A DNA stretch of 64,000 nt from contig CAYQYZ010000002.1 of the NCBI GenBank assembly GCA_964422025.1, positions 3,765 to 67,764 of the forward strand, in the 5' to 3' direction. This DNA comes from an uncultured Gammaproteobacteria bacterium (lineage in GTDB: Bacteria > Patescibacteriota > Microgenomatia > UBA1406 > HO2-37-13b). Under the pieces are notes generated by a model, which was given only the letters and a program-made list of their open reading frames with translations, was not told where the DNA came from and did not search any database. Made by a program: the position numbers and the translations under genes. Position 1 is the first letter of the stretch, and each line of letters starts with the position of its first letter. This document shows, in pieces, positions 3,962 to 30,888 of this stretch.

Positions 3962-3963
3962 CT

Positions 3964-4464: not shown

Positions 4465-4465
4465 T

Positions 4466-6534: not shown

Positions 6535-6536
6535 TT

Positions 6537-8794
<2,258 letters not shown>

Positions 8795-8795
8795 T

Positions 8796-9059: not shown

Positions 9060-9063
9060 GATC

Positions 9064-9645: not shown

Positions 9646-9693
9646 AGTTTGTATTGTACTGGGTTTACGACAAAAAAACAATGAGTAGGTGGG

Positions 9694-14353: not shown

Positions 14354-14429
14354 ACGACATATTATACAACACGATCCTATGATTGCTTTTTTTCTTGGAA
14401 ACATTCATAATGATAGTACGATAAGACGT

Positions 14430-14942
14430 ATGAAAAAATACCACACATTACTTGCATACTACAGTTTGATTATTTCAACACTATTAATTGTATGGTCAAC
14501 AATTTTTGTATCAAAGCATAGTGGATATATACTAGCGCTTTTAATCCTTCCAATTAGTGTGTATTTTTGGATACTTGTGACGGGTAAATTACCTCATGTA
14601 CATACCGAAGACAGTTCTTCAGATTCAAGTCAGACCATTTTTACCTTTTTACTTACCATTGCCTTTATTATTAGTTCCGCGAGTATTGTTCTGTATATTG
14701 CTGTTCTTGGATTACAACCAAAAAGTTCGCAGCAAACCCAAACGCTTCCCGATCTAACGAAGCTAGAAAAACAAATGCAATCAATTAAACACAATAATGA
14801 ACTATTGGAGAAGGTGGTTATTAAGCTTGACATACTTGAAACCAATATTAATAAGCTCGATGTGGAAACATCAATTCCTACGAGCAGCCCTGAAGCATCT
14901 ATGGAAGCCCGGATCAAAGAATTATTAAAAACATCGAATTAA
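14430..14942 (+). CDS. Small membrane protein (3 TM) with C-terminal coiled coil; paralog family member 1
   Basis: Hydrophobic helices. It shares the motif YILALLILPISVYFWILV with the next two genes. The start MKKYHTLL at 14430 is preferred over the track start 14379, which would overlap leuS. Confidence 0.6.
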   Translation: MKKYHTLLAYYSLIISTLLIVWSTIFVSKHSGYILALLILPISVYFWILVTGKLPHVHTEDSSSDSSQTIFTFLLTIAFIISSASIVLYIAVLGLQPKSSQQTQTLPDLTKLEKQMQSIKHNNELLEKVVIKLDILETNINKLDVETSIPTSSPEASMEARIKELLKTSN

Positions 14943-14945
14943 ATT

Positions 14946-15497
14946 ATGCGTTTAGTTGAAAAGATTTTCTTTGTTTATTGCACAGCACTTGCACTTTTTT
15001 TCACAGTCGCAGCTACGGTCGTACTGTTTAAAGGTAACAATTATATATTAATACTTTTTATACTTCCAATTCCTGGCTACTTTGTATATTATATGGTTCT
15101 TGCACTTGCAAAACGAAGATCTTTACCTCAAGGCTCAACTTCACGAACGTTTATTTTAATGGTAATACTATGTCTATGTTTATTAACATCCTATGCGGTA
15201 AGTAAAATATACATTCAGCCAAATGCGAGCAAATCACAAGCTAGGTGGCAAAAATTAATACAGCCAAGCATAACTCCTAGTAAGAACTTAGGGTACATTG
15301 AAGTTGATCCTGAACAAGCATCAGATTCGTGGGTCAACCTGCGCAATAACCCTTCTACAGAAGCGGCAGTAATTGGAAAAGCAACAGTTGGAAAAAAATA
15401 CTCTATATTAGTGATACGATCAAATTGGATTAAAATCCAAATGGACGCATCAAGTTCGGCATGGATTAGTAAAAAATTTATAAAAAATACACAATGA
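14946..15497 (+). CDS. Small membrane protein (3 TM) with C-terminal bacterial SH3-like domain; paralog family member 2
   Basis: YILILFILPIPGYFVYYMV motif. The C-terminus GYIEVDPEQASDSWVNLRNNPSTEAAVIGKATVGKKYSILVIRSNWIKIQ resembles SH3b. Confidence 0.65.
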   Translation: MRLVEKIFFVYCTALALFFTVAATVVLFKGNNYILILFILPIPGYFVYYMVLALAKRRSLPQGSTSRTFILMVILCLCLLTSYAVSKIYIQPNASKSQARWQKLIQPSITPSKNLGYIEVDPEQASDSWVNLRNNPSTEAAVIGKATVGKKYSILVIRSNWIKIQMDASSSAWISKKFIKNTQ

Positions 15498-16147
15498 AAA
15501 AGATAATACTAATTTATAATGTGGCAATAATAACGGTCGTTACATTTATAGGATTCATAGAATCAACGTCATACGCACAACTTATAAGCAGTATTATTTT
15601 CTTTCCGCTCACGATTTATTTCTGGAGGATGATCGTTCCTTCAACTGCAAGCACACCAAATGTTGCTTTAAAAAAAGCAGCTGTACTTAAGAAAGCAAAA
15701 AAGATTGATGCTAAACCAGAAGATGCCCCTATTAAACTCACTGAGTTAGATGAGATAAAAGATACGGACGTAGATAATAACCGACGTATGTTTTTACGAC
15801 TTATTGGATCTGCGGGCGTGTCTGTTTTTATTCTTTCAATATTTACAGGCAAAGCTGAAGCGGCATTTTTTGGAAGTAACCCTGGTCCTGGTACTATTGG
15901 AGTCAAAGATTCATCGGGAACACTTATCGATCCATCCGAAAAACAACCAACCGATGGATACAACATTTCACAAGTAGATGATGAAATACCTTCATACTAT
16001 GGTTATGTAAATAAAACAGGCGCTTGGTACATTGTAAAAGAAGATGCTACGGGAGCATATAGATATGTGAAAGGAGCAAGTAGTTTTTCAACTAATTGGA
16101 CAAATCGCGCTAGCTTAACATATGACTATTTTGATTCTATTTTTTAA
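15494..16147 (+). CDS. Membrane protein: 2-TM paralog module + internal twin-arginine-like signal + globular C-terminal domain
   Basis: SSIIFFPLTIYFWRMIV motif, then DVDNNRRMFLRLIGSAGVSVFILSIFTGKAEA-AFF at residues 93-123 (nt ~15770-15862). ATGA overlap with the upstream gene. Confidence 0.65.
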   Translation: MKKIILIYNVAIITVVTFIGFIESTSYAQLISSIIFFPLTIYFWRMIVPSTASTPNVALKKAAVLKKAKKIDAKPEDAPIKLTELDEIKDTDVDNNRRMFLRLIGSAGVSVFILSIFTGKAEAAFFGSNPGPGTIGVKDSSGTLIDPSEKQPTDGYNISQVDDEIPSYYGYVNKTGAWYIVKEDATGAYRYVKGASSFSTNWTNRASLTYDYFDSIF

Positions 16148-16177
16148 GTTTTTATGCTATAGTAACTAAATATTTCT

Positions 16178-16672
16178 ATGCCAACTAATCAGACTCTTTT
16201 CGTTACCGACATTAATGGCTCAGTTAGAGAATGTTTAAATATTTCACATGACACGACATACCCGGGATACGTGAAGGTGGAATTTTCTTCTAACAGAAAT
16301 GCTCCAGCGACATATTTTGAGTGGTACCCGGTAGATGATTTTATTCAAAATAATCCAACACTTGCCCATATTGTAAAGAAAGGCAAGCAACCAGCAGATG
16401 ATGATTTGGGTACAGTAACCCGCGCTACATTTACTACAATCACTGATAAGACCAAATCATGGCAACCAGGTATTTACAAAGGTATTCCCCTATGGATTTC
16501 TCGAGGAATTGGCGAAGGACAAGTTAGAAATGTAACAGATAATACGCATAATTCGCTCACTATCGATGAAAAATTTGACATTAAACCTGACAAAACATCG
16601 CAATATGTTCTATCGTATAATGTACATAATCCAACCGTTATGAATAATGCATTACCAGAAAATGAAAATTGA
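16178..16672 (+). CDS. Hypothetical cytoplasmic protein (164 aa)
   Basis: Intact ORF in the same-strand cluster. No signal peptide and no motif I recognise. Confidence 0.55.
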   Translation: MPTNQTLFVTDINGSVRECLNISHDTTYPGYVKVEFSSNRNAPATYFEWYPVDDFIQNNPTLAHIVKKGKQPADDDLGTVTRATFTTITDKTKSWQPGIYKGIPLWISRGIGEGQVRNVTDNTHNSLTIDEKFDIKPDKTSQYVLSYNVHNPTVMNNALPENEN

Positions 16673-17111
16673 ATATTTTTTAGGCGGAGCAGCTGGATTG
16701 GTTATTTTTGGATACGTTTTAGATATCCTTGCTGGACCACTTACGTTAGTTATTAATTCCCCGTTTGATTTTCTTACGCCGGTTATGCTTTCTACCTATC
16801 CATTCACGGCCGTATCGGTTGGCGCAAAGACAGTTGCCATTTTTGTTAGTACGGTAATGATTGTAACTACTGCTGGGGGCACTAAGTATAGTTTGCAATC
16901 AATAATTGTTTTTATTATGGCAGCACTTATGGAACTTTTTGCAATTCAACAAATAGCAACTCACGGCAATAACGTTTCTATGCAGTGGAATTTAGCATTT
17001 GCATTCTCTGGCGTATTACTTGTAGTTCCTGCAGTTATATATATGATTATGGCGATGGTAAAATCTGCACATAAAAATTTAGTGGCAGATCCGTACGAAT
17101 CTGACTCGTAG
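16662..17111 (+). CDS. Hypothetical polytopic membrane protein (~4 TM)
   Basis: MKIEYFLGGAAGLVIFGYVLDILAG... with four hydrophobic segments. The ATG at 16662 overlaps the upstream stop by 11 nt (track start 16647). Confidence 0.6.
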   Translation: MKIEYFLGGAAGLVIFGYVLDILAGPLTLVINSPFDFLTPVMLSTYPFTAVSVGAKTVAIFVSTVMIVTTAGGTKYSLQSIIVFIMAALMELFAIQQIATHGNNVSMQWNLAFAFSGVLLVVPAVIYMIMAMVKSAHKNLVADPYESDS

Positions 17112-17195: not shown

Positions 17196-20100
17196 ATGGC
17201 AACAATTACAATCGATCGAAGTATTAATGCAGATGATGCATTTGCAATGTCTGCGGGTATCACATTTGTTGCTCTCGCATCTGGATCTGCATCATACCAA
17301 ACTCAACCGACAGGTATTACCACGTGGACAACAGCGACTATTGTTCAATCCTCTGCTTGGCAATCTGTGTGTTATGGAAACAATATTGTTGTTGCAGTAA
17401 GCTCCACATCTGGAACAATCGCTGCTACTTCCCCGGCTGGTGTCACCGCGACATGGACATTACGGACAATGCCCGCAACAGCAAGCTGGTATGCAGTTGC
17501 ATATGGCTTATCGAAATTTGTCGCAGTGACAGGTGGTGCTTCAACTGTTGGAGCTTATTCGATTGACGGAGCAAAGTGGACACTCACGGGTGCACTGACA
17601 ACAAGCGGAGACTGGAGAGCCCTGACTTTTGGAAATGATCGCTTTGTTGCACTTTCGTACAACAGCACAAACACGAACTATTCAACAAATGGTACAACGT
17701 GGAGTGCAGGAGGTGCACTTCCTGCGACTCGTAACTGGACATCGGTGACCTATGGAGAGAGCACCTTTGTCGCAGTTGCCTCAGGAACTGATAAAGGAGC
17801 ATACTCGACAGACGGCGGAGTCAACTGGACAGAAATGACGATGCCATCATCTTCAAACTGGAATTCGGTCACGTATGGAAACGGAACGTTTGTCGCTGTA
17901 AGTAATACGTCGGGGACTATCGCAGCATATTCTGCTAATGGTATCGCTTGGACTTCTGCAACACTCCCAAACACACGAACCTGGGTTGCTGTCGCATTTG
18001 GGAATAACCTATTCACAGCAATTGCCAGCACTTCAACAACAGGAGCAGCATTTAGCTATGACGGTGTCAGTTGGAGTGGAGGCTCCATTGCAACTGTTTC
18101 GCAAGCAATTAGCTGTATGTGCCACACGCCCACCACCTGGAACTCAAACGACACACTTGTTATTACAAACAATTCAACTCTCACTGTCAATACAGACCAA
18201 AGTAAATTCTGGGGCTTCATAACCCTCACGAACGGAAAACTGCTCATTACAAATTCATCTACATCCACGGGTATCCGCTTTACCATGGGTCGCGTATCTG
18301 GGGCAGCTGCCGCGACTATCACTCCGGGATCAGGTATTGGAGATATTGAAATTACGGGAGACTGGATCGAGTTAGGTACCGGAGATGGAAGCTCTGGACA
18401 AACTATGACAGCCCCCTTCTCAGACTACATTGCGGCGCTCTGGGTCGAAACGGCATCTGGTTCGGGAATCTATGAACAGTGGCTCAATGCAACCGGCTCA
18501 TACAGCGACGCGTCCCCTATTCTCCGCGAAGGATTTGCAGCAATCGGGTCAGGTAGACGAGGTAAATTTTTCATCCAACAGGCAAATGCATCTCCGTATG
18601 GACCAACTATCCTCAACGGGACAGATGGAAGTATCGCACAAAAACTCATTACTGTTGACTCAACCACAGGACTCTATCCAGGCGCTTCGATTCTTGGCCC
18701 CGGAATCCCTGCAAACACGGTCGTGAATCGGGTCATTTCATCCACCCTCCTTGAAACAAATGCCATCTCCACGACTGAACTCTCCCCTGATTGGACCTCA
18801 GTCGCATATGGAAACAGTGTTTACGTGGCAGTGTCCGGTACCAGCTCAAACATAGCAGCAACATCTGCTGATGGGGTTACCTGGACCAAACGAACACTTC
18901 CATTTGTGGCTAACTGGAACTCAGTTTGTTATGGAGCAACGAGTGCCTTGTTTGTGGCAGTCTGTTCAGATGTGACGACAACTGGAGGAACTGCCATTGG
19001 GTCGAGATTTTGTGCAACAAGCCCTGATGGCATTACGTGGACAAGGCGTGCTATTCCACTCCCTTCTGTACTTGCTCAAAACTGGACATCAGTTGCTACC
19101 AACGGCACAAGCTTTGTCGCAGTTGGATCACTTGCAGACGGAACCGCCACGACAGTAGGTGCGTATTCTGCTGACGGGATCACCTGGTCAGCATCAACCA
19201 TGACCTCAGCAATATGGCGTTCAGTCACCTATGGTGCTGGTGCGGCCAACAGATATGTTGCCGTTTCAAGCACGACTATTTCTAACTGGGACGCGGACGG
19301 AACAGGCACATGGACAAACGGTGGTGCTATGACATCCGCAAACTATTTGAGCATCGCATGGAATGGAACGCGCTTTTATGCAGTTTCTGGTTCAAGCACG
19401 GTCAGTATGTGGTCCACAGATGCTACATCTTGGACGACGGGTGCTGTACTGAACAACTCGACGAGTCGCGGAGTCGCTTGGGACGGAACAAACTTCGTAA
19501 TCGTTTCAACAACAAACTCAGTTAACACATCCAGAACCCCTGCAGGTACGACGGGGACGCTCACCAACACAACCATGGCAGCAGCCAATGCAAACAACTG
19601 GACGGCGGTGTGCGCAAATGGAACAACGTTGGTAGCTGTATCATCCTCATCAAACTTGAGAAGTGCAGCGTTGACCTCCACAGACTCTGGAGCCAACTGG
19701 ACACTTCAAACGGGAACTCCTCTGGACGTATCACTTACCTGTTATAACCCGTATGTATCCCAACTTTCAAATACAGTCGAATTTGGCGACAACATCAATG
19801 GAAATAAGGTTCCCTCAGGGGCAAAAGTCAGATGTCCCAACATCATGTTTACATCTGCAGTGCCCGTCAACATCCAAACAGCATCCTCCATCGTCGGAGC
19901 AAACATGGTCATGACTGCAGGAGGATCACTTGTCGCCAATACCTGCTTGTTTGATGAGTCATACAACACCTTTAATCAGGCAGAAACACTTTCCCTCACA
20001 AATGTTGGTTTCTCTATCCCACCACTCATCAATGAATCGTATGGTGTCACGTTTAATAGTGTTGGCTTTGCCCTTGAGCCAGTCCGCCGGTATTACACCT

Positions 20101-23100
20101 ACTCAGCGACTATTGGTTCGGATGGCTGGTTTACTCGCGATAGACGTTACGGAGCTGGAACGACCACTTGGACATACTTGAATAATGCAAGCATCACTGA
20201 TTTTAATTACTGCGTTGGCTCGCCAAAAGCACTCCAAGTGGCAGTTTCTTCAGTAACCGCCCCTGCGCCAATGTTAACCATCTCGTACACACAAAACTCA
20301 ACGTGGAGCTATGTCCGCTTTTACGCTCTCAATTGTGTCGCTTCCTTTCAAGATGCATTTAACTTCCTCACGAACTTTAATGACAACACGATGGAGCACC
20401 TGGAAATGTACGGTGTTGCCCCCATGCTGTTTCAGACTTCAAGCGGAAATACGTTTACAGATGTACGCATTGCAGAAGATATGTTTAATGGATATAGAAG
20501 CTTTCCGACCACGGGTGCACGCATCGGCAATGATCCAACTGCGCAGGCTAAACTCGTCGATGACACCAAGTACTATCTGAAAGTCCGAACTTTTTATGAC
20601 TGGAACAATCTTTCAAATTATGCAGAAGGCCGAACAGTATCTGCAACGCCGTTTATTGGAAGTAAATTTTTCCCAGCAATATTTGGAGCAATAAATACCG
20701 CCACTCGTGCCGTCACTCTGACATGGATCAGGCGTGACCCTACATCCAGCGGTGCAGCGGGAACGACGACGTATCAAATATTTAGAAGCACTTCACCAGG
20801 CTTTACTCCCAGCTCTGCAAACAGAATATTTGACACTTTGACCGTCGCAACCGTTTCATACCTCAACGGTTTTGTCGCGACCATAACCGCCACAGCGTCG
20901 CCCGTAAGAACAATTACGTTTGCTGCAGCAGGTAGAACAATCACCCTTGGTGGTGCTGGTGCAGGAAGCTTTACAACCGCAGGATTTGTGGCTGGAGGAA
21001 ATGTGGTTGTAGCCGGAACTGTTTCTAACAATGGCACGTACACCATACTATCTTTTACAGCGACTGTCATCACCCTGACCACCAATCACACCAATTTAGT
21101 CAATGAAACTGCTCCAAACGGCGCAACTCTCGATGGTCAACCACCTGTAAACGGCACAAGTTACTACTATAAATTACGCAAGCACGATGCAATCCTCACG
21201 GGTATAACAAGTGCTTCAGGGACCGTCGCAACGACTACCCTCACAACAGCTGGAAACTTTAATACGGGTCTTGGGTCAGTCATCAACCTTCAAGGAATAA
21301 GCGGGCAAACCAAAATCAGGATTCCCGTCAGATCTACCACCAACTTTATGGCAGCGAACATTTTCCCTGGCCTCACCCTTGCAGGAACAGGTATCGGATC
21401 AGGGGCAAAGGTTGTGAGCATCGACACCGCATGGCAGATAACCGTCGATGTGACCAATTCATCGACGTTTGTTGGGACAACAGCCACTTTGGGGTTAGCC
21501 AACGGGACAGCGCCTGACAACATCTACGTTGTTGGGCCCGGAATCGCCCGCCCAACACGCGTGGCATCTATCACAAACTCGACCACTTTAGAGGTTGATA
21601 CCGCATTTATTGCAACCCTTTCTGCTCAGGCGATATTTTTTGAATATGGGACAGACAGCGCAGAAGTTGAAGTTACCCCAAGCGGTCCGACTACTGCCGC
21701 ATTTAACTTCCTTACTCAATCAAATGACTTCACCCATGCCAACTGGGTAAAAACAAATCTCACCGCGACAGCAAACCAAGTCTCGGGACCAAATGATATT
21801 GGCTTTGGTATCGCCGCAGCTCCAACCGCCGACCGACTCGTTTCGACCGGCCCAACAGCAAAGGCTGTACAGACTATCACCTCATACCTGGAAGTCGGCG
21901 CTATCTATACTTTCTCCGTATATATCAGATGTGACGCTCATCATTATTCCCAAACTGTCTCGGGAAAGATTTCTATCAATACAACAGTTGCCACGGATCA
22001 AGCATTTACAGCATCAGGAGTCTGGCAACGAATCTCAGCTACTTTTACCGCAACCGCCGTCACGCATGAATTTACCATTCAGATGACAACAGAGGGAAGT
22101 TACATCTATGCCTCAAGTGCTCTGGTTAATCAGGGCTCCTCCGCTCTTGTCCCCATCACCACCACCACCGTAAAAACAGCTGTGGCAAGCGGTGGACGCA
22201 CACTGACTTTTGCATCAGGTATCGACGGAGCCAATACCATTACCGCCTCATCAGGCGACTTCACAACAGCACCTGCTTTTGCAATTGGAGACAGTATTAT
22301 TGTGCAAGGAACATCTGATAATGACGGCACCTATGTATTATCTGCTGTAACAACTACTGTATTGACAGTGACTCCAGCACAACCCCTAGTTACGGGTGCG
22401 GGAGCACAATCATCTGGCTCCATCGTCGGGTCTGTTCTTGCCTCAGCAGCCCAAGAGCTTACCTCTGCACTTGCGTGGTGCCGAGCAACTGGAGGTAACA
22501 CGTCAAATCAGGGTATTGAAGTTGCTTTTGCTGCATTGCCAACTGGATCATTTTGGACTGAGCTGTATGTTGGGACGACAGCAGGCTTTACACCATCTTC
22601 TATTAATCGCGTTGGTTATACTCTTAACTTGCTTGGAGCTTCAACCTCCTTTTACCTCCTCAACTCCAATAACAACATTATCGACACGCTCGCTCAGGAA
22701 GGATACGGCGGATATTCTGGTACACGAGTATTCTTGCGAGGTGCTTCGAACAACAAATTCCTCGATTGGAACATTGACTTTAACTATGGTGCTGTACCTG
22801 CTATCGGAGATGTCGCAAATCTTTCCAACGACAATATCTTTGACGACTTCACCGTCAAAAACTTTAGAAACCTCAACACCTCACCGTTTATTTCTATTAA
22901 TGATAGTAGTGGACTTACCCTTCAAAACATCACCATTGAGCAAGCAAATGATATCCCCTATTCACTTCAATCATTAAACACCATTCTCAAGGGTGTGACG
23001 GGAGCCAATGCCGCTCAAGCAACGAACGCCACAACATATTTCTTCGGAGCAGGCGCATTTGCAACTGACGGACTTGCCATCGCCTATCAAGCCGTGTATG

Positions 23101-25967
23101 ACAACATCTTTTATGAACTGTACCATTCGCCCACAACCGGTGCACTTCACATGCTTTTCAACGCAAGCTCATCTGACACACCACCGTATACTATCGTCTC
23201 GGGCACACCAGCATTTGGAAACAACGGCCGTTTGTATTTGCGTACTGCTGGTGACTCGATCGAATACACCTGGCCATACCGTATTTATGGTATTTCCAGC
23301 TTCCGCGATATCATCCTCAAAAAAAATGGATTGGATCTGGGCTCAAGCTTGGACGGACTTGAATCACTTCTGGTTGAATTCAAAATCGATACGGGTACAG
23401 GAACAACGTACGGCGCATACCAAACTGCTACCCCAGCCAACCTTGCAGCCACATCTGTTTCCACCACCACCGGATTCCTTCTGAAAATCCGCATTACCGC
23501 CCAACCCGGAATGCTTTTTTCTACTCAAACAAATGCCTTTGTTGTCGGAGAAGAAATTGAAGGAACTACGTCTGGCGCAACAGCTACCGTTGATGATGTG
23601 CACAACCTAACAACAACAACGGGATGCGTCATATTGTCAAATATCACCGGCTCATTTATTCCCACAGAACTTGTTCGTCGTAATTCTGACAACCAAACGC
23701 GCGCAACGAACGTCGTAACCAACACGCAGTTCGCCCTGTTCCCATCCTTTAACAGCTATATTGACGGTTTGCAGATTTTTACCAATACCGTTGGCCCTGG
23801 TGATTATCCTGGGAGAATCGTGGACATTGTTCTGACCAACGTAACCACCGGAAGTACCTATTATGTATATAAAACGTCGGGAGGGTTACTTCTGGGCTCT
23901 GGGACAGCCAGTGGCGCGACAGTCACCATTCCAAATGTGGCGTATGTGACTGATTTTGGTATCACCATCCGTGTCCGCAAGTCCAGCGCCGTCACAAAGT
24001 ACCTTCCATTTGAAACGCAGGCTACAGTAACCGTTGCTGGTGCAAATGTATTTACATCGCAAATCGAAGATGCTATTGTAGCAGCCTCCTACGGTTCAAT
24101 TGGTAGTGACTTTACGATAAATTACACGCAAAAGCGTATCTATCACTCATCGGGAAGCTCTGTGTACTCCGTGAATGCTTTGTATTCATATCTACAAGAT
24201 GTGTTTGATGAAGAATCACAATTAGATGACACCGTACCAATGTCCGCACAAACGCCAACCGAATACACGCTCATCAACGGATGGTTCATGGATGATGAGT
24301 CATTTAAATACCTCACGGGTGGGGCTGTCCAAACATCGGGCTGGACGGGTGGTGTTATTCGCATGAAAGCATATGATGCGACCGGTGCTGGTACAGCGTT
24401 TGGATCGTCAGATATCGGTAAAGTGATTACGGAGACAGATAGCGGTGACACGGGAACCATCCTTGCCTATGATGAACGCACAGCCACTGAGATCGGCTAC
24501 GTGTGGATCCGCCCTGATACTCTGGCTGACACGTTTGCCGATGTAAACTCTGCCTACACCGTAGCGACAAGCTCCGCAGCCGGCGTCTTTACTGCAGCCA
24601 GCAGCACTGGTGAAACGATTTGGTCCAATATATTCTCGCTCGGTACGCTTGTAAGTGGTTCTACACTAGATGTCTGGCAAAATGATGTCCAAATCACTCC
24701 ATGGTGGACCAGCGGGCATATAGATATCTTGGTGAAGGTAAAAGAAATGGGAACAGAAACAGATAGCGGCAACATCACCGTTCTTGCCCGTAAATATTCT
24801 ACTCTCTATGACCATTTTGTCATCGATGCATCTACCGGTCGCAACCCGGTGCCTTTGGCGGCTTTTGCCGATGGAAATAATGAAACAGCATCGGGCACCG
24901 TAGCCGGATATTCAGATATAACATTTGATTTTGGGGCTTCAAGTCAAGATCTTGGGAATGGCAACGGAAGCCAACCGTATGATGTGGTCATTGACGGAGC
25001 CGGTCGACCACTCACTGAAATATATGAATACCTCAAATATGTAACGCGTTCAGGCTCTGGAACAACCCTTAACGGTGTTAACGGTGAGTTCTATATTGCG
25101 GTCGGCGACTACCGTTTTAACTACGATACAGAAGCATCTGGACCATTTGTGGAGGGTGAGCGAATTAACGGTAGCGGCGCCGTGTATGGCTATCTTGTGT
25201 CGCTTATTGACAGCGGAGCAACGGGCACCATGACGCTGCGCAATGTTCATGGAAGTTTTGCAGATGATATGGCAATCTCAGGAGTAACATCAGGTGCAAC
25301 AGCGGCCGTTAATGGAGCCCCGGAAGCAATTACTGCTTCTAAGCAAGCGCCTTTCGGAACCTTTGCCGGAGGGTCATTTTTCGGAGCCCGCGGCGTATTC
25401 CTAACTAATATGGATATTGCCGACGCCAATAACTATGAATTAATCGATGCAACGAACACCAGTCAAGTTCCACCTGCCACCGTAAACGTCCTGGTAGGAG
25501 GCTTAGTCTCCGGTGACCGAGTGAGCGTTTTCCGAACCACCGGAGCAAACGAAATCATCAATAAAACATATCTCGCTTCTCACGCCACTACCAACTCAGC
25601 AGCAACCACCGCATGGGAAGCAACCGGAGCGATCCCTGCCGACACACCAGCGGCGGGCTTTATTCGTCTTGTAAAGACCGCATCAAGTACTGAAGAGCGC
25701 TTAGAGTACACATCGTGGACGGGTGCTATTTTTACACTTGCAGGGGCGCATGCTGGCGGTTATGGCACCGGCGACACCGCGTATGTACCGTACATTGACG
25801 AACAAGCCAGCAGTACAAGTATTTCCAAGAGTGTTACCTATGTTTCTGATCGTACGGTGATGACCCGAGTTCGAAAAGTTGGCATTCAACCATTCACCAC
25901 CACCGGATCACTAACATCAACGGGTTACTCCGCAACAGCAGTAAGGACCGCAGATACCATCGCATAA
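17196..25967 (+). CDS. Giant (2923 aa) Thr/Ser/Gly/Ala-rich protein: two beta-propeller repeat arrays, beta-helix-like and FN3-like segments, tail-fibre-type jelly-roll module
   Basis: Single uninterrupted ORF. It has about 7+7 repeats of W-x-[SA]-V-x-[YF]-G-x-x-x-F-V-A-V with [ST]-x-[DN]-G-x-x-W (residues ~40-300 and ~530-830). The segment NFLTQSNDFTHANWVKTNLTATANQVSGPNDIG..ADRLVSTG..YTFSVYIRC.. recalls phage tail-fibre carbohydrate-binding modules. No N-terminal signal peptide is present. Confidence 0.9.
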   Translation: MATITIDRSINADDAFAMSAGITFVALASGSASYQTQPTGITTWTTATIVQSSAWQSVCYGNNIVVAVSSTSGTIAATSPAGVTATWTLRTMPATASWYAVAYGLSKFVAVTGGASTVGAYSIDGAKWTLTGALTTSGDWRALTFGNDRFVALSYNSTNTNYSTNGTTWSAGGALPATRNWTSVTYGESTFVAVASGTDKGAYSTDGGVNWTEMTMPSSSNWNSVTYGNGTFVAVSNTSGTIAAYSANGIAWTSATLPNTRTWVAVAFGNNLFTAIASTSTTGAAFSYDGVSWSGGSIATVSQAISCMCHTPTTWNSNDTLVITNNSTLTVNTDQSKFWGFITLTNGKLLITNSSTSTGIRFTMGRVSGAAAATITPGSGIGDIEITGDWIELGTGDGSSGQTMTAPFSDYIAALWVETASGSGIYEQWLNATGSYSDASPILREGFAAIGSGRRGKFFIQQANASPYGPTILNGTDGSIAQKLITVDSTTGLYPGASILGPGIPANTVVNRVISSTLLETNAISTTELSPDWTSVAYGNSVYVAVSGTSSNIAATSADGVTWTKRTLPFVANWNSVCYGATSALFVAVCSDVTTTGGTAIGSRFCATSPDGITWTRRAIPLPSVLAQNWTSVATNGTSFVAVGSLADGTATTVGAYSADGITWSASTMTSAIWRSVTYGAGAANRYVAVSSTTISNWDADGTGTWTNGGAMTSANYLSIAWNGTRFYAVSGSSTVSMWSTDATSWTTGAVLNNSTSRGVAWDGTNFVIVSTTNSVNTSRTPAGTTGTLTNTTMAAANANNWTAVCANGTTLVAVSSSSNLRSAALTSTDSGANWTLQTGTPLDVSLTCYNPYVSQLSNTVEFGDNINGNKVPSGAKVRCPNIMFTSAVPVNIQTASSIVGANMVMTAGGSLVANTCLFDESYNTFNQAETLSLTNVGFSIPPLINESYGVTFNSVGFALEPVRRYYTYSATIGSDGWFTRDRRYGAGTTTWTYLNNASITDFNYCVGSPKALQVAVSSVTAPAPMLTISYTQNSTWSYVRFYALNCVASFQDAFNFLTNFNDNTMEHLEMYGVAPMLFQTSSGNTFTDVRIAEDMFNGYRSFPTTGARIGNDPTAQAKLVDDTKYYLKVRTFYDWNNLSNYAEGRTVSATPFIGSKFFPAIFGAINTATRAVTLTWIRRDPTSSGAAGTTTYQIFRSTSPGFTPSSANRIFDTLTVATVSYLNGFVATITATASPVRTITFAAAGRTITLGGAGAGSFTTAGFVAGGNVVVAGTVSNNGTYTILSFTATVITLTTNHTNLVNETAPNGATLDGQPPVNGTSYYYKLRKHDAILTGITSASGTVATTTLTTAGNFNTGLGSVINLQGISGQTKIRIPVRSTTNFMAANIFPGLTLAGTGIGSGAKVVSIDTAWQITVDVTNSSTFVGTTATLGLANGTAPDNIYVVGPGIARPTRVASITNSTTLEVDTAFIATLSAQAIFFEYGTDSAEVEVTPSGPTTAAFNFLTQSNDFTHANWVKTNLTATANQVSGPNDIGFGIAAAPTADRLVSTGPTAKAVQTITSYLEVGAIYTFSVYIRCDAHHYSQTVSGKISINTTVATDQAFTASGVWQRISATFTATAVTHEFTIQMTTEGSYIYASSALVNQGSSALVPITTTTVKTAVASGGRTLTFASGIDGANTITASSGDFTTAPAFAIGDSIIVQGTSDNDGTYVLSAVTTTVLTVTPAQPLVTGAGAQSSGSIVGSVLASAAQELTSALAWCRATGGNTSNQGIEVAFAALPTGSFWTELYVGTTAGFTPSSINRVGYTLNLLGASTSFYLLNSNNNIIDTLAQEGYGGYSGTRVFLRGASNNKFLDWNIDFNYGAVPAIGDVANLSNDNIFDDFTVKNFRNLNTSPFISINDSSGLTLQNITIEQANDIPYSLQSLNTILKGVTGANAAQATNATTYFFGAGAFATDGLAIAYQAVYDNIFYELYHSPTTGALHMLFNASSSDTPPYTIVSGTPAFGNNGRLYLRTAGDSIEYTWPYRIYGISSFRDIILKKNGLDLGSSLDGLESLLVEFKIDTGTGTTYGAYQTATPANLAATSVSTTTGFLLKIRITAQPGMLFSTQTNAFVVGEEIEGTTSGATATVDDVHNLTTTTGCVILSNITGSFIPTELVRRNSDNQTRATNVVTNTQFALFPSFNSYIDGLQIFTNTVGPGDYPGRIVDIVLTNVTTGSTYYVYKTSGGLLLGSGTASGATVTIPNVAYVTDFGITIRVRKSSAVTKYLPFETQATVTVAGANVFTSQIEDAIVAASYGSIGSDFTINYTQKRIYHSSGSSVYSVNALYSYLQDVFDEESQLDDTVPMSAQTPTEYTLINGWFMDDESFKYLTGGAVQTSGWTGGVIRMKAYDATGAGTAFGSSDIGKVITETDSGDTGTILAYDERTATEIGYVWIRPDTLADTFADVNSAYTVATSSAAGVFTAASSTGETIWSNIFSLGTLVSGSTLDVWQNDVQITPWWTSGHIDILVKVKEMGTETDSGNITVLARKYSTLYDHFVIDASTGRNPVPLAAFADGNNETASGTVAGYSDITFDFGASSQDLGNGNGSQPYDVVIDGAGRPLTEIYEYLKYVTRSGSGTTLNGVNGEFYIAVGDYRFNYDTEASGPFVEGERINGSGAVYGYLVSLIDSGATGTMTLRNVHGSFADDMAISGVTSGATAAVNGAPEAITASKQAPFGTFAGGSFFGARGVFLTNMDIADANNYELIDATNTSQVPPATVNVLVGGLVSGDRVSVFRTTGANEIINKTYLASHATTNSAATTAWEATGAIPADTPAAGFIRLVKTASSTEERLEYTSWTGAIFTLAGAHAGGYGTGDTAYVPYIDEQASSTSISKSVTYVSDRTVMTRVRKVGIQPFTTTGSLTSTGYSATAVRTADTIA

Positions 25968-25984
25968 CCAAATACTATATTTAC

Positions 25985-26593
25985 ATGAGCAAAACTAAAA
26001 GACAAACATTTTACTCCGATTATAACGACACAATTAATCTTGTAAAGAAAAATGGAGCTTATTCAATAATAGTTGATAAATTTGAAGAATCTGGTATAGA
26101 AATTGAAGCATTATGGGAAGAAGTGTTCAATAAGTTTGAACAGCAAATATCACTGTCAAACGTGCTTATACTTGGCTTTGGAGCAGGGTCAATTATGAAG
26201 ACGTTTAGAAAGAAATACCCCTTAAGCAAAATTACTGGAATTGAAATAGATCCAGAAATGATACGCATAGCAAACGACTACTTTCCTGAAAATATGAAAG
26301 ATGTAAATGTCATCATTACCGATGCCGTGTCGTACATTAACAACTTGGAGGACAAGGTTATGTATGACCTTATTGTGGTGGATTGTTATTTAGGCGGTAC
26401 GCTTTTTACGGGAATATCGAATATGCAGTTTTTGCTCAAACTAAAAAAAATAGCCCGACGAGTACTATTTAATCAAGTATTTTTACCACATGATAAAGAG
26501 GAATTAAAAAAGATTGAGTATCTACGGACACTTGATGTGGTTCATAAAGTAAAGGCATTAAAATTACCATATAACATAATTCTTGAATATTAA
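25985..26593 (+). CDS. Class I SAM-dependent methyltransferase / spermidine-synthase-fold protein
   Basis: VLILGFGAGSIMKTF (motif I), ITGIEIDPEMIRIANDYF, DLIVVDCY. Confidence 0.7.
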   Translation: MSKTKRQTFYSDYNDTINLVKKNGAYSIIVDKFEESGIEIEALWEEVFNKFEQQISLSNVLILGFGAGSIMKTFRKKYPLSKITGIEIDPEMIRIANDYFPENMKDVNVIITDAVSYINNLEDKVMYDLIVVDCYLGGTLFTGISNMQFLLKLKKIARRVLFNQVFLPHDKEELKKIEYLRTLDVVHKVKALKLPYNIILEY

Positions 26594-26623
26594 TTCGCCG
26601 TGTGATATGGTAAGCAATGTATT

Positions 26624-26824
26624 ATGGATAAACATTATGTTTGTATTGGCGGATGTGGACTGGTTGCCGACGCTATGATTAAGTGCAATAGTGTAGGTTG
26701 TTGGCGTGCCCGAAATCCGCTTGGAGAATGCTTTTGTGAGGATTTCAAACACGATGATTTCCACAAACAGTATGGAATCAACAATAAAGAAAGTGAGAAT
26801 TCTAATATAACAAATTCGGATTAA
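26624..26824 (+). CDS. Small Cys-rich protein (66 aa), putative metal-binding
   Basis: YVCIGGCG..IKCNSVGCWRARNPLGECFCED: seven Cys in the first 40 aa. Coding status is uncertain. Confidence 0.45.
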   Translation: MDKHYVCIGGCGLVADAMIKCNSVGCWRARNPLGECFCEDFKHDDFHKQYGINNKESENSNITNSD

Positions 26825-26864
26825 ATATATCAAATTCGGATTAAGTATATCAATACTCCGAAAG
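26805..26864 (+). repeat. 20-bp tandem repeat, about 2.5 copies (ATATAnCAAATTCGGATTAA)
   Basis: ATATAACAAATTCGGATTAA / ATATATCAAATTCGGATTAA / GTATATCAATACTCCGAAAG. It spans the small-ORF stop and abuts the -35 of the next promoter. Confidence 0.7.
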
Positions 26865-26867
26865 TCC

Positions 26868-26897
26868 TTGACAGTGATTATTTGCAAACTTTATACT
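26868..26897 (+). promoter_or_regulatory. Sigma70-type promoter of the 657-aa gene
   Basis: TTGACA-N17/18-TATACT, followed by a ~50-nt leader to ATG 26949. Confidence 0.55.
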
Positions 26898-26948
26898 GTT
26901 TCTCAGTATTCATAATTTACACATAAACTTTTTTTAAAGAAATAAGCA

Positions 26949-28922
26949 ATGGCAACCATTAGTTCAGATTTTACAATTGATTACGTTAATAAACGTGTCT
27001 ACCATTCAGCAAATAATAATGTATACACCGTAAACGCACTCTATTCCTATCTACAAGATACCTTTGATGAACTTGCCCAGATGGATGACACCATCCCGAT
27101 GTCGGCACAGACACCAACAGATTACACCCTCATTAACGGATGGTTCATGGACGAGGAATCATTTAAATATCTCAAAGGAGGAGCCATTCAAACAAGCGGA
27201 TACAACGGAGAAATTCAAATTCTTCTGCTTGATGGGACATATGTAAGCGCTGTATCTGGAGACATCGGTAAAACAGTACTTGATGATGCTGTCGCTTCCG
27301 GCCAGCTCCTTGCATACGACAACACTCTGCAAAAATGGTGGATCCGGCATACAGGAACGATAGCAAATAACTCTGTCATGACAATCTCCACCGGTACCGG
27401 TGCTGGAGATGCGCTTGGAGCATCTGTTACCGGAGAAAACCTATACCCAAACGTCTATACTCTTGGATCTATCGAAGAAGATGACAGTCAACAGATTTAC
27501 ATTATTCAAAATGGATCACGACTGACCGAGTGGTGGCCAGAATCAGGATCCGGAACGCAGCAGATTGATGTACTTATCAAAGTCAAAGAGGCAGGTACCG
27601 AAATAAATAGCGGTGCTATCACTGTATTTCTTAGACATTACCCAAGCGGCGGAAATGCCGACTTGTACGACCACTTCGGAATCGATCTTACCGCTGGAGG
27701 CCGAAATGCGGTTCCTCTTGCTACCTCTCCTGACTTAAACAACTTGACTGCCACAGCAACCGTATCAGGATACAGTGACGTAACAATCGCTTTCGTAAAT
27801 GGAACCCTCACCTATACGGGCATGTCAGCTGCTTTTACGAACCTTGAGACTGTCACACAAGCCTCAAGCGGTGCAACTGGTATCTATCTTTACTCCACCA
27901 CATCAAGCGGAGCAGGAACCATGACGCTCGGAAATGTTGTTGGGACTTTTGACGGGACAAACGTTATTACTGGCGGAACCTCAGGATCAACCGCAACATC
28001 CTCTTCAACACTCACCAATGCCTACACGATGGATAAAAACTTCGACCAAGGATCTTCATATCCGTATTCTGTTATTGTTGGATGTGCAACCCGACCTTTG
28101 ACAGAAGTATATGAATATCTCAAGTACATCACCCGTGTTGGATCAAGCTACAACACCTATCCAACAGCAAAGGCCCAAGGTGGAGCAATAACATTTGCAG
28201 CGCTCACAGGACAACAATACATTCGAGCCCATGAAGATAATCAGACATCACCTGATAATACGTTTTCACCAGCCAAGGCTTCCCCATTCGGTACCTTTGC
28301 AGGAGGAAAGCTCTTCGGTGCGCAAGGTGTGTGGGTTGAAAACATGGATGCAGCAGACATTCAAAACTTCCAGCTTATTGACTCAGACGGCACAACACGA
28401 ACTCCACCGAACAAACAAAATGTCACTATTACGAATCTTCTTTCCGGAGACCGCGTCTCAGTTTTCCGAACATCTTCTGGGACAACAATTGATAAGGCAA
28501 TGTATTCCCTTGCTGCAAGTAATGATTCCGGCGATAGTACAATCATTGTTACGGGAAGCATATCTGTTGATACACCTTCTACCGGCGCGATTAGACTTGT
28601 AGATACAAGCGATCTAACAGCAACGCGAGAAACACGATACACGTACACATCATGGTCTGGATCGACATTTTCAGGCGTATCTCCTGTTCTTGATCGCACA
28701 TACACAGCATCTGATGATAAAGCATACGTACCGTTTATCGATGAACAGGCATCGAGCACATCAATTTCTGTACAGGTCATTTATTCTACAGATCGATCAA
28801 TTCTCCTCCGTGTCCGACGAAAAGCATCTGTTGCCATTCTGCCATTTGAAACAACGGGAACATTCGGATCAACTGGATTTTCAACATCTGCAATTAGAAC
28901 ACCTGATACAATCGTTACTTAA
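26949..28922 (+). CDS. 657-aa paralog of the C-terminal ~620 aa of the giant protein
   Basis: SDFTIDYVNKRVYHS..VYTVNALYSYLQDTFDELAQMDDTIPMSAQTPTDYTLINGWFMDEESFKYLKGGAIQTSG compares with giant residues ~2306 on (SDFTINYTQKRIYHS..VYSVNALYSYLQDVFDEESQLDDTVPMSAQTPTEYTLINGWFMDDESFKYLTGGAVQTSG). The C-termini also match (AYVPFIDEQASSTSIS.. vs AYVPYIDEQASSTSIS..). Confidence 0.9.
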   Translation: MATISSDFTIDYVNKRVYHSANNNVYTVNALYSYLQDTFDELAQMDDTIPMSAQTPTDYTLINGWFMDEESFKYLKGGAIQTSGYNGEIQILLLDGTYVSAVSGDIGKTVLDDAVASGQLLAYDNTLQKWWIRHTGTIANNSVMTISTGTGAGDALGASVTGENLYPNVYTLGSIEEDDSQQIYIIQNGSRLTEWWPESGSGTQQIDVLIKVKEAGTEINSGAITVFLRHYPSGGNADLYDHFGIDLTAGGRNAVPLATSPDLNNLTATATVSGYSDVTIAFVNGTLTYTGMSAAFTNLETVTQASSGATGIYLYSTTSSGAGTMTLGNVVGTFDGTNVITGGTSGSTATSSSTLTNAYTMDKNFDQGSSYPYSVIVGCATRPLTEVYEYLKYITRVGSSYNTYPTAKAQGGAITFAALTGQQYIRAHEDNQTSPDNTFSPAKASPFGTFAGGKLFGAQGVWVENMDAADIQNFQLIDSDGTTRTPPNKQNVTITNLLSGDRVSVFRTSSGTTIDKAMYSLAASNDSGDSTIIVTGSISVDTPSTGAIRLVDTSDLTATRETRYTYTSWSGSTFSGVSPVLDRTYTASDDKAYVPFIDEQASSTSISVQVIYSTDRSILLRVRRKASVAILPFETTGTFGSTGFSTSAIRTPDTIVT

Positions 28923-28924
28923 TT

Positions 28925-29482
28925 ATGACATCAGATACGTTTACTGGCTCCAAACCGAAAGCTGTCCGTGGACCAAATGGACGGTTCGTAAGTAATAAGG
29001 TACCAGAGCCTCCTTTGGAAGAAGCACCACAAGACTTGCATGACCAAGCAGCTACTATTGATCCACCCGTAGAAGTCATATCTGAAACACAGCATATTTT
29101 CTTCAATGATCTTTCATATTATGGCGAATATATTAGACGCGTATATAAAAATAGTGAGTGGTTTTTTGTCATTGAAGACCTTTTTCCCTTAGCGAATATT
29201 ACAGAACCGAATAAAGTTATCGACGCTTTTGAACATTCTCCCTATTACACTGATTCCATTGGTACAGATCTTTTCGAAATCGAGATTCCTAAAAATAATT
29301 TAGGACAGAGCCACTTAACCATTGGTAACAAAAAAACCATTCTAGCTTTTATTCAACTGTTACGATCAATGAGCCACTTCTTCCCGGGCAGATTTCCTGA
29401 ATGGATAGAAGAAACCACCCACGTAGATTTTGCGGAAGCTGACGCCAAACGAAAAAGCATTCTCAATCAAAATCTTAATTAA
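28925..29482 (+). CDS. Hypothetical protein with Bro-N/KilA-N-like segment
   Basis: FFNDLSYYGEYIRRVYKNSEWFFVIEDLFPLANITEPNKVIDAF fits the Bro-N pattern (vRvv..dge.wFva.Dva.aLg...) by eye only. Confidence 0.5.
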   Translation: MTSDTFTGSKPKAVRGPNGRFVSNKVPEPPLEEAPQDLHDQAATIDPPVEVISETQHIFFNDLSYYGEYIRRVYKNSEWFFVIEDLFPLANITEPNKVIDAFEHSPYYTDSIGTDLFEIEIPKNNLGQSHLTIGNKKTILAFIQLLRSMSHFFPGRFPEWIEETTHVDFAEADAKRKSILNQNLN

Positions 29483-29519: not shown

Positions 29520-30830
29520 ATGGCATTAACATTTGATTTCACTGATAGTATTATTGAAGTTCCTGCTCCTCAGACAACGCTTGTCATGCAGGACTTGATT
29601 AATGAAATTCGTGACGTAGAAGATGAGCTAACTCCTGGTATGGTTAATAATAAAATCGCCGATGCTTCGGGCAAGGAAGATTTAGGAGGCGGCGTATCTA
29701 CAGCTATAACTGTTCGTTTGCTTGATAGCTGGCGGGTGCGATTCGAAGCTCGAGGCGGGCCCACCACTGAGCAAATGGTTATTACCGGAGGCAATTTAGT
29801 AGGAGGTTTACTAGGAAGTCCAATAGCGCCTTCTGCGTATACTCAAGTATTGAACTTAAGCTCGGCATCGGGAACGATTGCTACACCTGCTACGGCAAGT
29901 GATGCAACAAATCTTAAATATCTTCTTGCATCAGCATATAGCGGCCAAAAAACAATTGGAGACATTTTCTATTGGGATCCTGTTTCAGGAAGTGATTCAA
30001 ATAATGGACTTACACCTGCTACGGCAGTGCTCACCTTTGCGTCGGCTCATACATTAGCTACATCGGGAATGCATGATGTGATTTTCTGTCTTTCTTCCGA
30101 TCCATCGGGTATTACTACGGTTACTGAAACACTTGCCATTACAAAGCACACGCTTAAAGTACGAGGTCCCGGTTATACATTCCAACTTATTCCATCAGCC
30201 GATACTGCTGATACCATATCAGTCACTGGTAATAACTCAGAAGTCTCGGGGCTATATATTTCAACCGCAGGAACCGGAACACGCAATGGTATTAGCGTGG
30301 CAGCGAATAATGTTGTCGTAAAAGATTGTTGGGTCTCGCAAACACGCGGACATGGTATAAGCCTGAGCAATGCAAATTTGTGTAGCTTAGGTATTAATGT
30401 CGTTGATTCAAGTGGACTATCGGGAACTGGAAATGCAATTAACTTAGGTGACAATACAACCCAAACAGTTATTGCTAAATGTATTATTTCAGACAGCATT
30501 GACGGAATAGCTTTGTCGGGGACTGGCTTATCAGATAATATTGTCGAAGATAGTTTGGTATATAAGAACTCTGGATATGGATTGCATGTTGGTTCTGGAG
30601 TCTTGAGAACCGTTGCTCGATCAGGTAATACGTTTATTAATAACACCACAGCGAATACGCTTGATTCTGGTACCGACACGTACATTGAAAGTGCGGCCGG
30701 AGGCGCATCTGCATCGGAAATTGCCGATGCTGTATGGGATGAGGTCATTTCTGGCCATGTAACATCGGGCACATCAGGTCGATTCCTTAAAGACGCCAAG
30801 CTTAAAGCAACAATCGCTTCACTTAAATAG
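29520..30830 (+). CDS. Right-handed parallel beta-helix protein, tailspike/tail-fibre-like
   Basis: Repeated PbH1-like turns (NGISVAANNVVVKDCWVSQTRGHGISLSNAN..NAINLGDNTTQTVIAKCIISDSIDGIALSG..NIVEDSLVYKNSGYGLHVGSG). The C-terminal SEIADAVWDEVISGHVTSGTSGRFLKD motif is common in phage tail fibres. No signal peptide is present. Confidence 0.75.
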   Translation: MALTFDFTDSIIEVPAPQTTLVMQDLINEIRDVEDELTPGMVNNKIADASGKEDLGGGVSTAITVRLLDSWRVRFEARGGPTTEQMVITGGNLVGGLLGSPIAPSAYTQVLNLSSASGTIATPATASDATNLKYLLASAYSGQKTIGDIFYWDPVSGSDSNNGLTPATAVLTFASAHTLATSGMHDVIFCLSSDPSGITTVTETLAITKHTLKVRGPGYTFQLIPSADTADTISVTGNNSEVSGLYISTAGTGTRNGISVAANNVVVKDCWVSQTRGHGISLSNANLCSLGINVVDSSGLSGTGNAINLGDNTTQTVIAKCIISDSIDGIALSGTGLSDNIVEDSLVYKNSGYGLHVGSGVLRTVARSGNTFINNTTANTLDSGTDTYIESAAGGASASEIADAVWDEVISGHVTSGTSGRFLKDAKLKATIASLK

Positions 30831-30888
30831 AGCTTGATACCCTATTGAAGTGCTTGCATTTTTATTCGGTGTTTGATACTCTCAAGTG

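Follow-up and report, generated by a model that had tools for sequence, protein, structure and literature searches.

A protein module carried both at the C-terminus of a giant protein and as a free paralogue in a conserved chromosomal locus of Microgenomates

Why would a cell encode the C-terminal part of a giant protein a second time, as a gene of its own? The question is raised by a 64-kb stretch of contig CAYQYZ010000002.1 (the window, W), in which an open reading frame (ORF) for a protein of 2923 aa is followed on the same strand by a 657-aa ORF that is collinear with its C-terminus. The initial annotation offered two answers, namely that the free copy is an alternative distal, receptor-binding module, or that it is a separately expressed subunit that co-assembles with the C-terminal domain of the giant. 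The analysis described here leads to a third answer, related to the second, in which the two copies are ancient paralogues that may well serve as different links of a single appendage. We refer to the fused copy as MOD_F, to the free copy as MOD_S, to the part of the giant upstream of MOD_F as X, to the C-terminal motif as CT, to the N-terminal domain of the module as N-dom, and to the other genome or viral-contig loci compared by L-numbers. The argument turns on the following features.

17196-25967, + strand: giant ORF, 2923 aa
17196-24080, + strand: X part of the giant, aa 1-2295; variable, with N-terminal β-propeller-like W..V.YG..FVAV repeats and an EPTP repeat match; no transmembrane segment or signal peptide
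23919-24080, + strand: internal copy of the CT motif (~55 aa), giant aa 2242-2295; found by hmmsearch with the CT profile (independent E-value 7e-6) and also by BLASTP; marks the putative former C-terminus of X, 5 aa before the module
24096-25967, + strand: MOD_F, complete module copy fused to X, giant aa 2301-2922 plus the stop codon
24096-24353, + strand: N-dom of MOD_F (putative docking-type domain) inside the giant, aa 2301-2386; N-dom profile E-value 4.6e-47; homologous to the N-terminus of the partner
26868-26897, + strand: predicted sigma-70-type promoter of MOD_S, TTGACA-N18-TATACT, 11/12 match
26949-28922, + strand: MOD_S, free 657-aa module, with N-dom (aa 1-85), β-sandwich insert (86-165), core, SH3-like insert (291-372), conserved C-terminal region of ~220 aa, and CT motif (~585-657)
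29520-30830, + strand: partner, 436 aa, with an N-dom followed by a right-handed β-helix; no CT motif

Are the two copies truly homologous, and how closely? Both ORFs are as first described, and a Smith-Waterman alignment runs giant residues 2301-2922 collinear with residues 3-655 of the paralogue, with a score of 1122 as against 84±10 (maximum 110) for 100 shuffles; the last 216 residues alone give a BLASTP E-value of 2e-52. Protein identity between the copies amounts to 40% over 719 columns including gaps, or 51.5% over 557 aligned residue pairs, and is distributed unevenly, with 75% in residues 1-85 of the paralogue, 51% in residues 441-657, and lower values in the middle, where domain-sized insertions and deletions occur. 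An SH3-like domain of ~60 aa is found at residues 291-372 of the paralogue and, at a different insertion point, at residues 2648-2706 of the giant, which has an additional copy at residues 2112-2176. The similarity is not of the low-complexity kind, with 94 invariant columns over 56 family members. At the nucleotide level, the ~70% identity originally estimated by eye is confined to the first 85 codons (~250 nt), and the value over all aligned codons is 55%. The best ungapped stretch comprises 175 nt at 77% identity (24161-24335 versus 27020-27194), third codon positions are only 33% identical, i.e., saturated, and the short identical runs mentioned in the initial annotation reach at most 17 nt (AACGGATGGTTCATGGA, at 24276 and 27135). 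These alignments identify the last 622 aa of the giant and the 657-aa ORF as ancient paralogues of one protein family, and the gene pair is kept in related genomes.

The age of the duplication can be bracketed using the nine genomes that contain both copies (36 genome pairs). The identity ranking was the same in all 36 pairs, with free-to-free comparisons (57-92%) exceeding fused-to-fused comparisons (51-87%), and these in turn exceeding fused-to-free comparisons (40-54%); within genomes, the fused and free copies are 43-52% identical, no more than between genomes (40-54%). Because orthologous free copies and orthologous fused copies are always closer to each other than the two kinds of copy are, the duplication predates the split between Roizmanbacteria and Shapirobacteria, with no sign of gene conversion since. 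A neighbour-joining tree places the fused copies in one clade and the free copies of ~660 aa in another, tight one. Compared with the closest genome (L006), MOD_S has a nonsynonymous divergence (dN) of 0.051 and a synonymous divergence (dS) of 1.70, corresponding to a ratio ω of ~0.03, and MOD_F has a dN of 0.087 with saturated dS. By these values, both copies are under strong purifying selection, MOD_F evolving somewhat faster.

MOD_S is also equipped with a predicted promoter of its own. The TTGACA and TATACT hexamers recognized initially are present, separated by a spacer of 18 nt rather than 17, and both are conserved in seven loci, including Shapirobacteria (W, L006, L007, L008, L011, L016, and L017), and absent from L013. 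Since the hexamers are kept while the surrounding non-coding sequence is not, their conservation across orders supports a real, separate promoter for MOD_S.

How one copy came to reside in a giant is suggested by loci in which the two parts are still apart. In L032, an X protein of 1016 aa ends at a stop codon 4 nt ahead of the ATG of a 626-aa module; in L029 (Gottesmanbacteria), 11 nt separate an X of 1275 aa from a 626-aa module; and in L014, 3 nt separate an X of 933 aa from a 624-aa module. Each of these modules has its own ATG, the reading frames of X and module differ in two of the three pairs, and the separate 624-626-aa modules nest in the clade of giant-fused copies in the neighbour-joining tree. 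In some Roizmanbacteria (L003, L007, L008, L011, and L018), X is a CT-ended protein of just 850-980 aa without a fused module. In every giant examined, the CT motif lies 5-8 aa ahead of module residue 1-3. As X and MOD are separate, abutting genes in other Microgenomates, the comparison identifies the giant as a fusion of the X and MOD_F genes. The ancestral order in Microgenomates was likely X - MOD_F - MOD_S - partner, with the fusion of X and MOD_F taking place in the lineage of the window. The N-terminus of the giant was considered as a signal peptide and rejected, as the hydrophobic stretch belongs to the FVAV propeller repeat by comparison with L001.

Which kind of protein is the module? 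The closest relatives of the 657-aa protein are proteins of 655-690 aa from Candidatus Roizmanbacteria and other Microgenomates (56-93% identity), all of them unannotated, and close relatives of ~655-690 aa, more than 1173 in number, occur in Roizman-, Shapiro-, and Levybacteria and in CPR3. A family profile search retrieved 1593 clusters at 50% identity (E≤1e-3), 478 of them with E≤1e-30. In most members, the module is a free protein beginning with residue 1; the others, a minority, have it embedded in proteins of 1400-4263 aa. The minimal core of ~460 aa corresponds to profile positions 1-85, 162-290, and 373-661, to which the Microgenomates forms add β-domain inserts. Relatives were found in 76 genome loci, including those of archaea, Planctomycetes, Bdellovibrio-like bacteria, Desulfarculales, and Bacteroidales, and 254 relatives are encoded in IMG/VR viral contigs. 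The module adjoins terminase, portal, and major head genes in L055 and a homologue of the central tail fibre protein J in L057; phages usually encode a single MOD and a single partner. The module has no match in Pfam, NCBIfam, or PHROG, a sequence-profile search against the PDB returned only noise, and a search of BFVD yielded only weak matches (TM-score ~0.1) to uncharacterised or 'structural' phage proteins.

Among cultured phages, only Syn5 encodes a match to the module. Its gp53 was detected by tblastn at 7e-13 with the MOD of L057, a 459-aa member from Desulfarculales, as the query; it also matched the window-based profile A1 in three collinear segments (E 1.9e-6) and a profile of the short, phage-type members (E 1e-24), and hhalign aligned gp53 residues 18-311 with a probability of 99.0% (E 9e-18). 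Searches of phage records by tblastn with a member from a Bdellovibrio prophage or with a phage partner protein returned nothing. The profile searches and the viral contigs show a family that uncultivated bacterial and archaeal phages and prophages commonly encode, with Syn5 gp53 as a remote relative. GenBank lists gp53 and gp54 as "structural protein", the annotated tail fibre being a different gene, gp46. Raytcheva et al. (2014, J Virol 88:2047) are said to have found that gp53 and gp54 form the Syn5 horn, located at the vertex opposite the tail, and that antibodies directed at the two proteins did not block infection. Despite a weak Foldseek match (rank 50), gp54 was rejected as a second module or an X-type protein for want of detectable homology.

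Two further members of the family deserve mention. In the IMG/VR contig L109, a 2286-aa protein encoded directly upstream of the module (3123-9983) consists in part of 10 tandem β-sandwich insert domains of ~75 aa each (profile positions 87-163). The largest fused member, P0121 (4263 aa), matches the profile with 968 bits in six stretches, the best at residues 3016-3289, and may contain more than one module.

The module does not travel alone. When all neighbouring genes were clustered, a partner family emerged that is encoded no more than three genes downstream of the module in 132 of ~160 loci, with one partner gene per locus. The first ~90 residues of the partner are homologous to the N-dom of the module (hhalign probability 92.8%, E 4e-7). 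The remainder in the window is a right-handed β-helix, as indicated by matches to Pfam Beta_helix (1.5e-6) and NosD and by an AlphaFold2 (AF2) model with a pLDDT of 80, for which Foldseek retrieved pectate lyase Pel9A (8e-7), the Det7 tailspike gp208 (7e-5), and CBA120 TSP2 (1e-3). In many phages, the partner is reduced to the N-domain, with a length of 150-230 aa. The counterpart in Syn5 is gp55 (156 aa; L161 10112-10582), which matches the profile of the partner N-dom at 4.5e-11 and is encoded two genes after gp53. The Syn5 cassette thus has the same gene order as the window, with the module first and the partner-type gene downstream, among genes for virion structural proteins, and, like the module here, its proteins belong to no Pfam or PHROG family; unlike in Syn5, where the genes contribute to a virion, the module in the window is chromosomal, duplicated, and in one copy part of a 2923-aa protein.

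The two terminal elements are distributed with a clear polarity. The CT motif ends every module and ends the proteins encoded just upstream of the module in ~55 phage and CPR (candidate phyla radiation) loci, and is present in no partner. The N-dom, conversely, was found in 169 MODs, 135 partners, and eight other proteins (among them six N-dom-only ORFs of 82-118 aa), and never in X. The resulting layout is X[...CT] - MOD[N...CT] - PARTNER[N...], and the genes follow each other in the same polarity. A linker of 5-8 residues covalently connects the CT motif to the N-dom in the giants; following Rosetta-stone logic, this suggests that the two are in contact when they are located on separate chains.

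We therefore favour, with a probability of roughly 55%, a reading in which a single composite fibre or appendage has MOD_F and MOD_S as two distinct links, each obligatory and neither able to replace the other, with head-to-tail docking as the probable mode of assembly. Each CT motif would bind the N-dom of the protein that follows. The first link, between X and MOD_F, would be covalent in the giant; the terminal CT motif of the giant would then engage the N-dom of MOD_S, and the CT motif of MOD_S that of the β-helix partner. The MODs would form a conserved shaft or connector, and the ligand-facing ends would be the variable 2295-aa X with its β-propeller repeats and the β-helix resembling polysaccharide lyases and tailspikes. 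By analogy with the branched or serial assemblies of phage receptor-binding proteins (CBA120 TSP1-4, G7C gp63.1/gp66, and the Klebsiella anchor-branch tailspikes), assembly would proceed through modular terminal adaptors. In those systems, neighbouring genes encode proteins that have short terminal docking domains in common and are otherwise different, and one component is a right-handed β-helix, as is the partner here, for which Det7 gp208 and CBA120 TSP2 are among the Foldseek matches. Unlike in those assemblies, the docking proposed here runs from C-terminus to N-terminus in series rather than branching at the N-termini, and searches by sequence and by fold found no match of the N-dom or the CT motif to T4 gp10-like or XD adaptor domains.

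The proposed docking is derived from domain distribution, gene order, and Rosetta-stone logic, and several results weigh against the model. The deep topology of the neighbour-joining tree is unreliable. The AF2 model of the module has low confidence in the conserved core, and Foldseek gave no informative PDB match for it (nothing below 1e-3, the top match being the β-sandwich domain of a cyclodextrin glucanotransferase at 2.8e-3). No signal peptide or transmembrane segment was detected in the giant, MOD_S, or the partner. MOD_F is absent from some Roizmanbacteria (L003, L007, L008, L011, and L018), where it must be dispensable. Syn5 gp53 is a distant match that extends over no more than the N-terminal two-thirds of the family profile, and it gave no match to the CT-motif profile. 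Finally, gp55 has been assigned to capsid knobs rather than the horn, on indirect evidence from a 4.7-Å map in which no model was built. If correct, this assignment would not fit a simple docking of gp55 on gp53; given the N-dom homology of gp55 and the location of its gene near gp53, it may be worth a second look.

Small ORFs that consist of the N-dom only are located upstream of the module in L029 (7652-7999), L052 (8303-8991), L068 (8528-8776), L069 (9965-10240), and L081 (2502-2756), which belong to Gottesman-, WWE3-, Beckwith-, and Roizmanbacteria. Their products could act as caps or competitors at the proposed docking site.

Could the two copies instead assemble side by side? The module might oligomerise, for example as a trimer, with free MOD_S co-oligomerising with the MOD_F of the giant, so that a shaft or ring of MODs would carry one or a few giant arms, in the manner of a pilus tip adhesin. 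The regions best kept between the copies are those of the family core (75% in the N-terminal 85 aa and 51% in the C-terminal ~220 aa) and the inserted β domains differ; low AF2 confidence in the core combined with inserts at pLDDT >90 is typical of intertwined oligomers; and the predicted promoter of MOD_S would allow an excess of the free subunit. The parallel with FimH/FimA of type 1 pili and with the tip pilins of sortase pili lies in a large binding protein whose C-terminal domain is also made as a separate subunit, in larger amounts and with stronger conservation; unlike in those systems, to which no homology was found, no usher, chaperone, or sortase signals and no signal peptides are found here. 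An identity of 40-54%, saturated synonymous sites, and separate clades are, however, more typical of subunits that occupy distinct positions, and a mixed oligomer would lose its symmetry, as the SH3-like insert is placed differently in MOD_F and MOD_S. Furthermore, lineages without MOD_F keep an X with the CT motif only, which suggests that this motif, and not a whole shared module, links X to MOD, and lateral assembly leaves unexplained why the partner shares nothing but the N-dom. We consider such an arrangement possible but rather unlikely. The proposal of a separately expressed, co-assembling subunit in the initial annotation is compatible in general terms with the conserved predicted promoter and the strong purifying selection on both copies, although the polarity suggests end-to-end docking rather than lateral co-oligomerisation.

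Alternatively, the copies might not touch at all. MOD_F and MOD_S could each form a homo-oligomeric fibre of their own, sharing a cellular or virion anchor site or recruiting the partner separately, as parallel adhesins of different specificities. That one MOD suffices is indicated by the phages, which usually combine one MOD with one partner; the Roizmanbacteria that have no MOD_F and the different insert domains of the two copies would also fit. The architecture of the locus argues otherwise. Across Microgenomates, the gene order is membrane proteins - X - MOD_F - Cys-rich mini-ORF - MOD_S - (185-aa protein) - β-helix partner - TatA/TatC, and the locus is vertically inherited. For instance, a 949-kb Shapirobacteria contig encodes small proteins, a 2813-aa giant that likewise has the module at its end, a 61-aa Cys-rich ORF, a 662-aa protein, a β-helix protein, three TatA proteins, and TatC. 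The arrangement of two MODs in fixed order is conserved in Gottesman-, Davies-, Shapiro-, and Roizmanbacteria, there is a single partner gene per locus, and the polarity of the CT motif and the N-dom parallels the gene order, all of which speak against independent appendages and make this alternative an unlikely one.

The reading of MOD_F and MOD_S as distinct links also has to be set against the first proposal of the initial annotation, in which the free copy is a spare receptor-binding cassette that replaces the tip of the giant by recombination, comparable to invertible tail-fibre segments or to orphan modules of Rhs and contact-dependent inhibition (CDI) systems. The copies are indeed in tandem and in the same orientation, with short identical nucleotide runs (maximum 17 nt), phage relatives exist, and, as in Rhs/CDI orphans and the invertible tips of Mu and P1, the C-terminal region of a large protein is encoded once more downstream. 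Unlike in those systems, the downstream copy is complete, with its own ATG and a conserved predicted promoter; it is under purifying selection and is the more conserved of the two. Neither a shared recombination border or inverted repeat nor a gene for an invertase or immunity protein was found. Between the copies, repeats that are both long and near-identical are lacking in either orientation, no inverted one exceeds 16 nt, and the locus ORFs that were scanned contain no invertase, recombinase, or reverse-transcriptase domains. Gene conversion has left no sign, as judged from third positions at 33% identity and a best stretch of 175 nt at 77%. Moreover, it is X that varies. Free copies are 57-92% identical across Roizman- and Shapirobacteria, and the upstream part of the large protein varies in length between ~850 and 3241 aa, with an identity of only ~30-42% when W is compared with L001, so that the module is, by this comparison, the constant part of the system and X the variable part. 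Exchange of distal tips is thus largely refuted and very improbable.

The idea that the locus is a decaying prophage remnant, i.e., leftover phage structural DNA without a present cellular function, has next to no chance of being correct: the abundance of the family in viral contigs and the lack of a detectable export signal would suit it, but it is contradicted by a dN/dS of ~0.03 and intact ORFs, by synteny with tatA/tatC that holds across Microgenomates orders (with leuS also near in W and L001), and by the window, in which no capsid, terminase, or integrase genes were found in domain scans of the larger ORFs and no tRNA genes were found.

The genes of the window encode subunits of the F-type ATP synthase, leucyl- and tryptophanyl-tRNA synthetases, serine hydroxymethyltransferase, ribosomal protein L1, prepilin peptidase (PilD), an M16 peptidase, and TatC. 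This content identifies the window as part of a Roizmanbacteria-like (CPR) chromosome, not a phage. A phage origin of the window was considered and rejected, as blastn and tblastn searches of the region and the paralogue against 50,697 phage records returned nothing, PHROGs returned nothing, and the window carries CPR chromosomal genes. Overall, the observation made in the initial annotation is confirmed and its interpretation is partly supported, the co-assembling subunit in spirit and the alternative tip not; absent from it were the origin of the giant by gene fusion, the 657-aa form as a typical full-length family member, the CPR bacterial chromosome as the host, and the end-to-end polarity.

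The giant (18000-26000) has a GC content of 0.48 and a GC content at third codon positions (GC3) of 0.43, compared with GC3 values of 0.27-0.40 in neighbouring and housekeeping genes, 0.36 in MOD_S, and 0.31 in the partner. Recent transfer was rejected as the explanation, because GC3 is just modestly raised and the locus is vertically conserved; the raised GC may reflect composition or expression instead.

What would such a locus mean for its hosts? By itself, the coexistence of fused and free versions of one module is what modular protein evolution ordinarily produces. For the context, in which a phage-appendage family of large size lacks annotation, shows a polarity of proposed docking, and is retained as a core chromosomal locus in Microgenomates, we found no description in the searchable literature; a literature search for this Microgenomates locus in particular yielded nothing relevant. 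We tentatively propose, as a possibility rather than an expectation, that a phage virion-appendage cassette of the Syn5 horn gp53/gp55 type has been domesticated by Microgenomates and is now passed on vertically as a core chromosomal locus beside tatA/tatC, where it would build a modular cell appendage through docking of CT motifs on N-doms, with the fast-evolving X arms of the giants and a glycan-active β-helix as its business ends. If true, the appendage could be the host-attachment organelle of these episymbionts, and this docking code would also account for a cassette that occurs, unannotated, in hundreds of uncultivated bacterial and archaeal phages, and would foretell how the Syn5 horn is built. 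To our knowledge, the cell biology of Microgenomates and their contact with hosts have remained almost unexplored, and the locus would provide a concrete candidate for a surface or attachment structure; it would also trace the origin of some Microgenomates giant genes to the fusion of a variable arm to a conserved connector. Beyond these bacteria, the analysis defines a family of ~1600 clusters (50% identity) with an invariable partner gene in phages of bacteria and archaea, supplies a hypothesis of CT-to-N-dom docking, and links the family to gp53 of the cyanophage Syn5. We know of no explanation so far for the function of the Syn5 horn.

The remaining features of the locus, including the methyltransferase gene and the Cys-rich mini-ORF that the initial annotation had placed between the two copies and the repeat it had placed ahead of the promoter, are as follows.

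14379-17111, + strand: five small ORFs upstream of the giant, of 187, 183 (SH3_3), 217, 164, and 154 (~4 transmembrane segments) aa; all but the 164-aa protein look membrane-type; conserved companions of the locus, with orthologues in L003, L001, and many other loci
25985-26593, + strand: gene for a 202-aa class I S-adenosylmethionine (SAM)-methyltransferase with a spermidine-synthase-like fold; lineage-specific insert, found only in W, L006, L007, and L011
26624-26824, + strand: Cys-rich 66-aa ORF with the pattern H(Y/F)VC.GGCG..KC..GC.R.RNPL..C.C..KH; conserved at the codon level
26804-26853, no strand assigned: 20-bp tandem repeat, 2.5 copies (AATATATCAAATTCGGATTA), just upstream of the -35 box and overlapping the stop codon of the mini-ORF
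28925-29482, + strand: 185-aa protein of unknown function, conserved in the locus, with a position that shifts between lineages
30886-32046, + strand: TatA (30886-31149) and TatC (31294-32046), by Pfam; the TatC cluster is found downstream in 32 loci and TatA in 23

The Cys-rich ORF is 48% identical to the 61-aa ORF of the Shapirobacteria locus (L001 9752-9937), and its cluster is located directly upstream of the free module in 11 loci; from its cysteine pattern, the mini-protein looks like a zinc ribbon. The repeat unit ATATCAAATTCGGATTAA is conserved in L006 and L007 and is a candidate operator or regulator-binding site. Among the small proteins upstream of the giant, that of 217 aa (15494-16147) has two N-terminal hydrophobic segments followed by a twin-arginine-type motif (DNNRRMFLRLIGSAGVSVFILSIFTGKAEA/AF) at about residue 95, which, near tatA/tatC, could provide a Tat link of the locus. 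Just 3' of tatC, a PrsW-like intramembrane protease (32186-32650) and, on the opposite strand, a protein of ~750-900 aa (32639-34903, - strand; weak SH3_3 match in relatives) are conserved in many of the same loci (clusters c3 and c4) and may belong to the same system.

Many metagenome-assembled genome records that contain this locus, typical of Microgenomates (L006, L010-L012, L018, L021-L026, and others), are titled 'uncultured Gammaproteobacteria' or 'Pseudomonadales'; these titles are probably placeholders or wrong taxonomic labels. Elsewhere in the window (48332-53683), a 1104-aa ORF with a Peptidase_G2 intramolecular-chaperone autoproteolytic domain is followed by a 678-aa tetratricopeptide repeat (TPR) protein. 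The Peptidase_G2 domain is typical of the C-termini of phage tailspikes and endosialidases, and this ORF is a second phage-appendage-like gene in a chromosomal setting.

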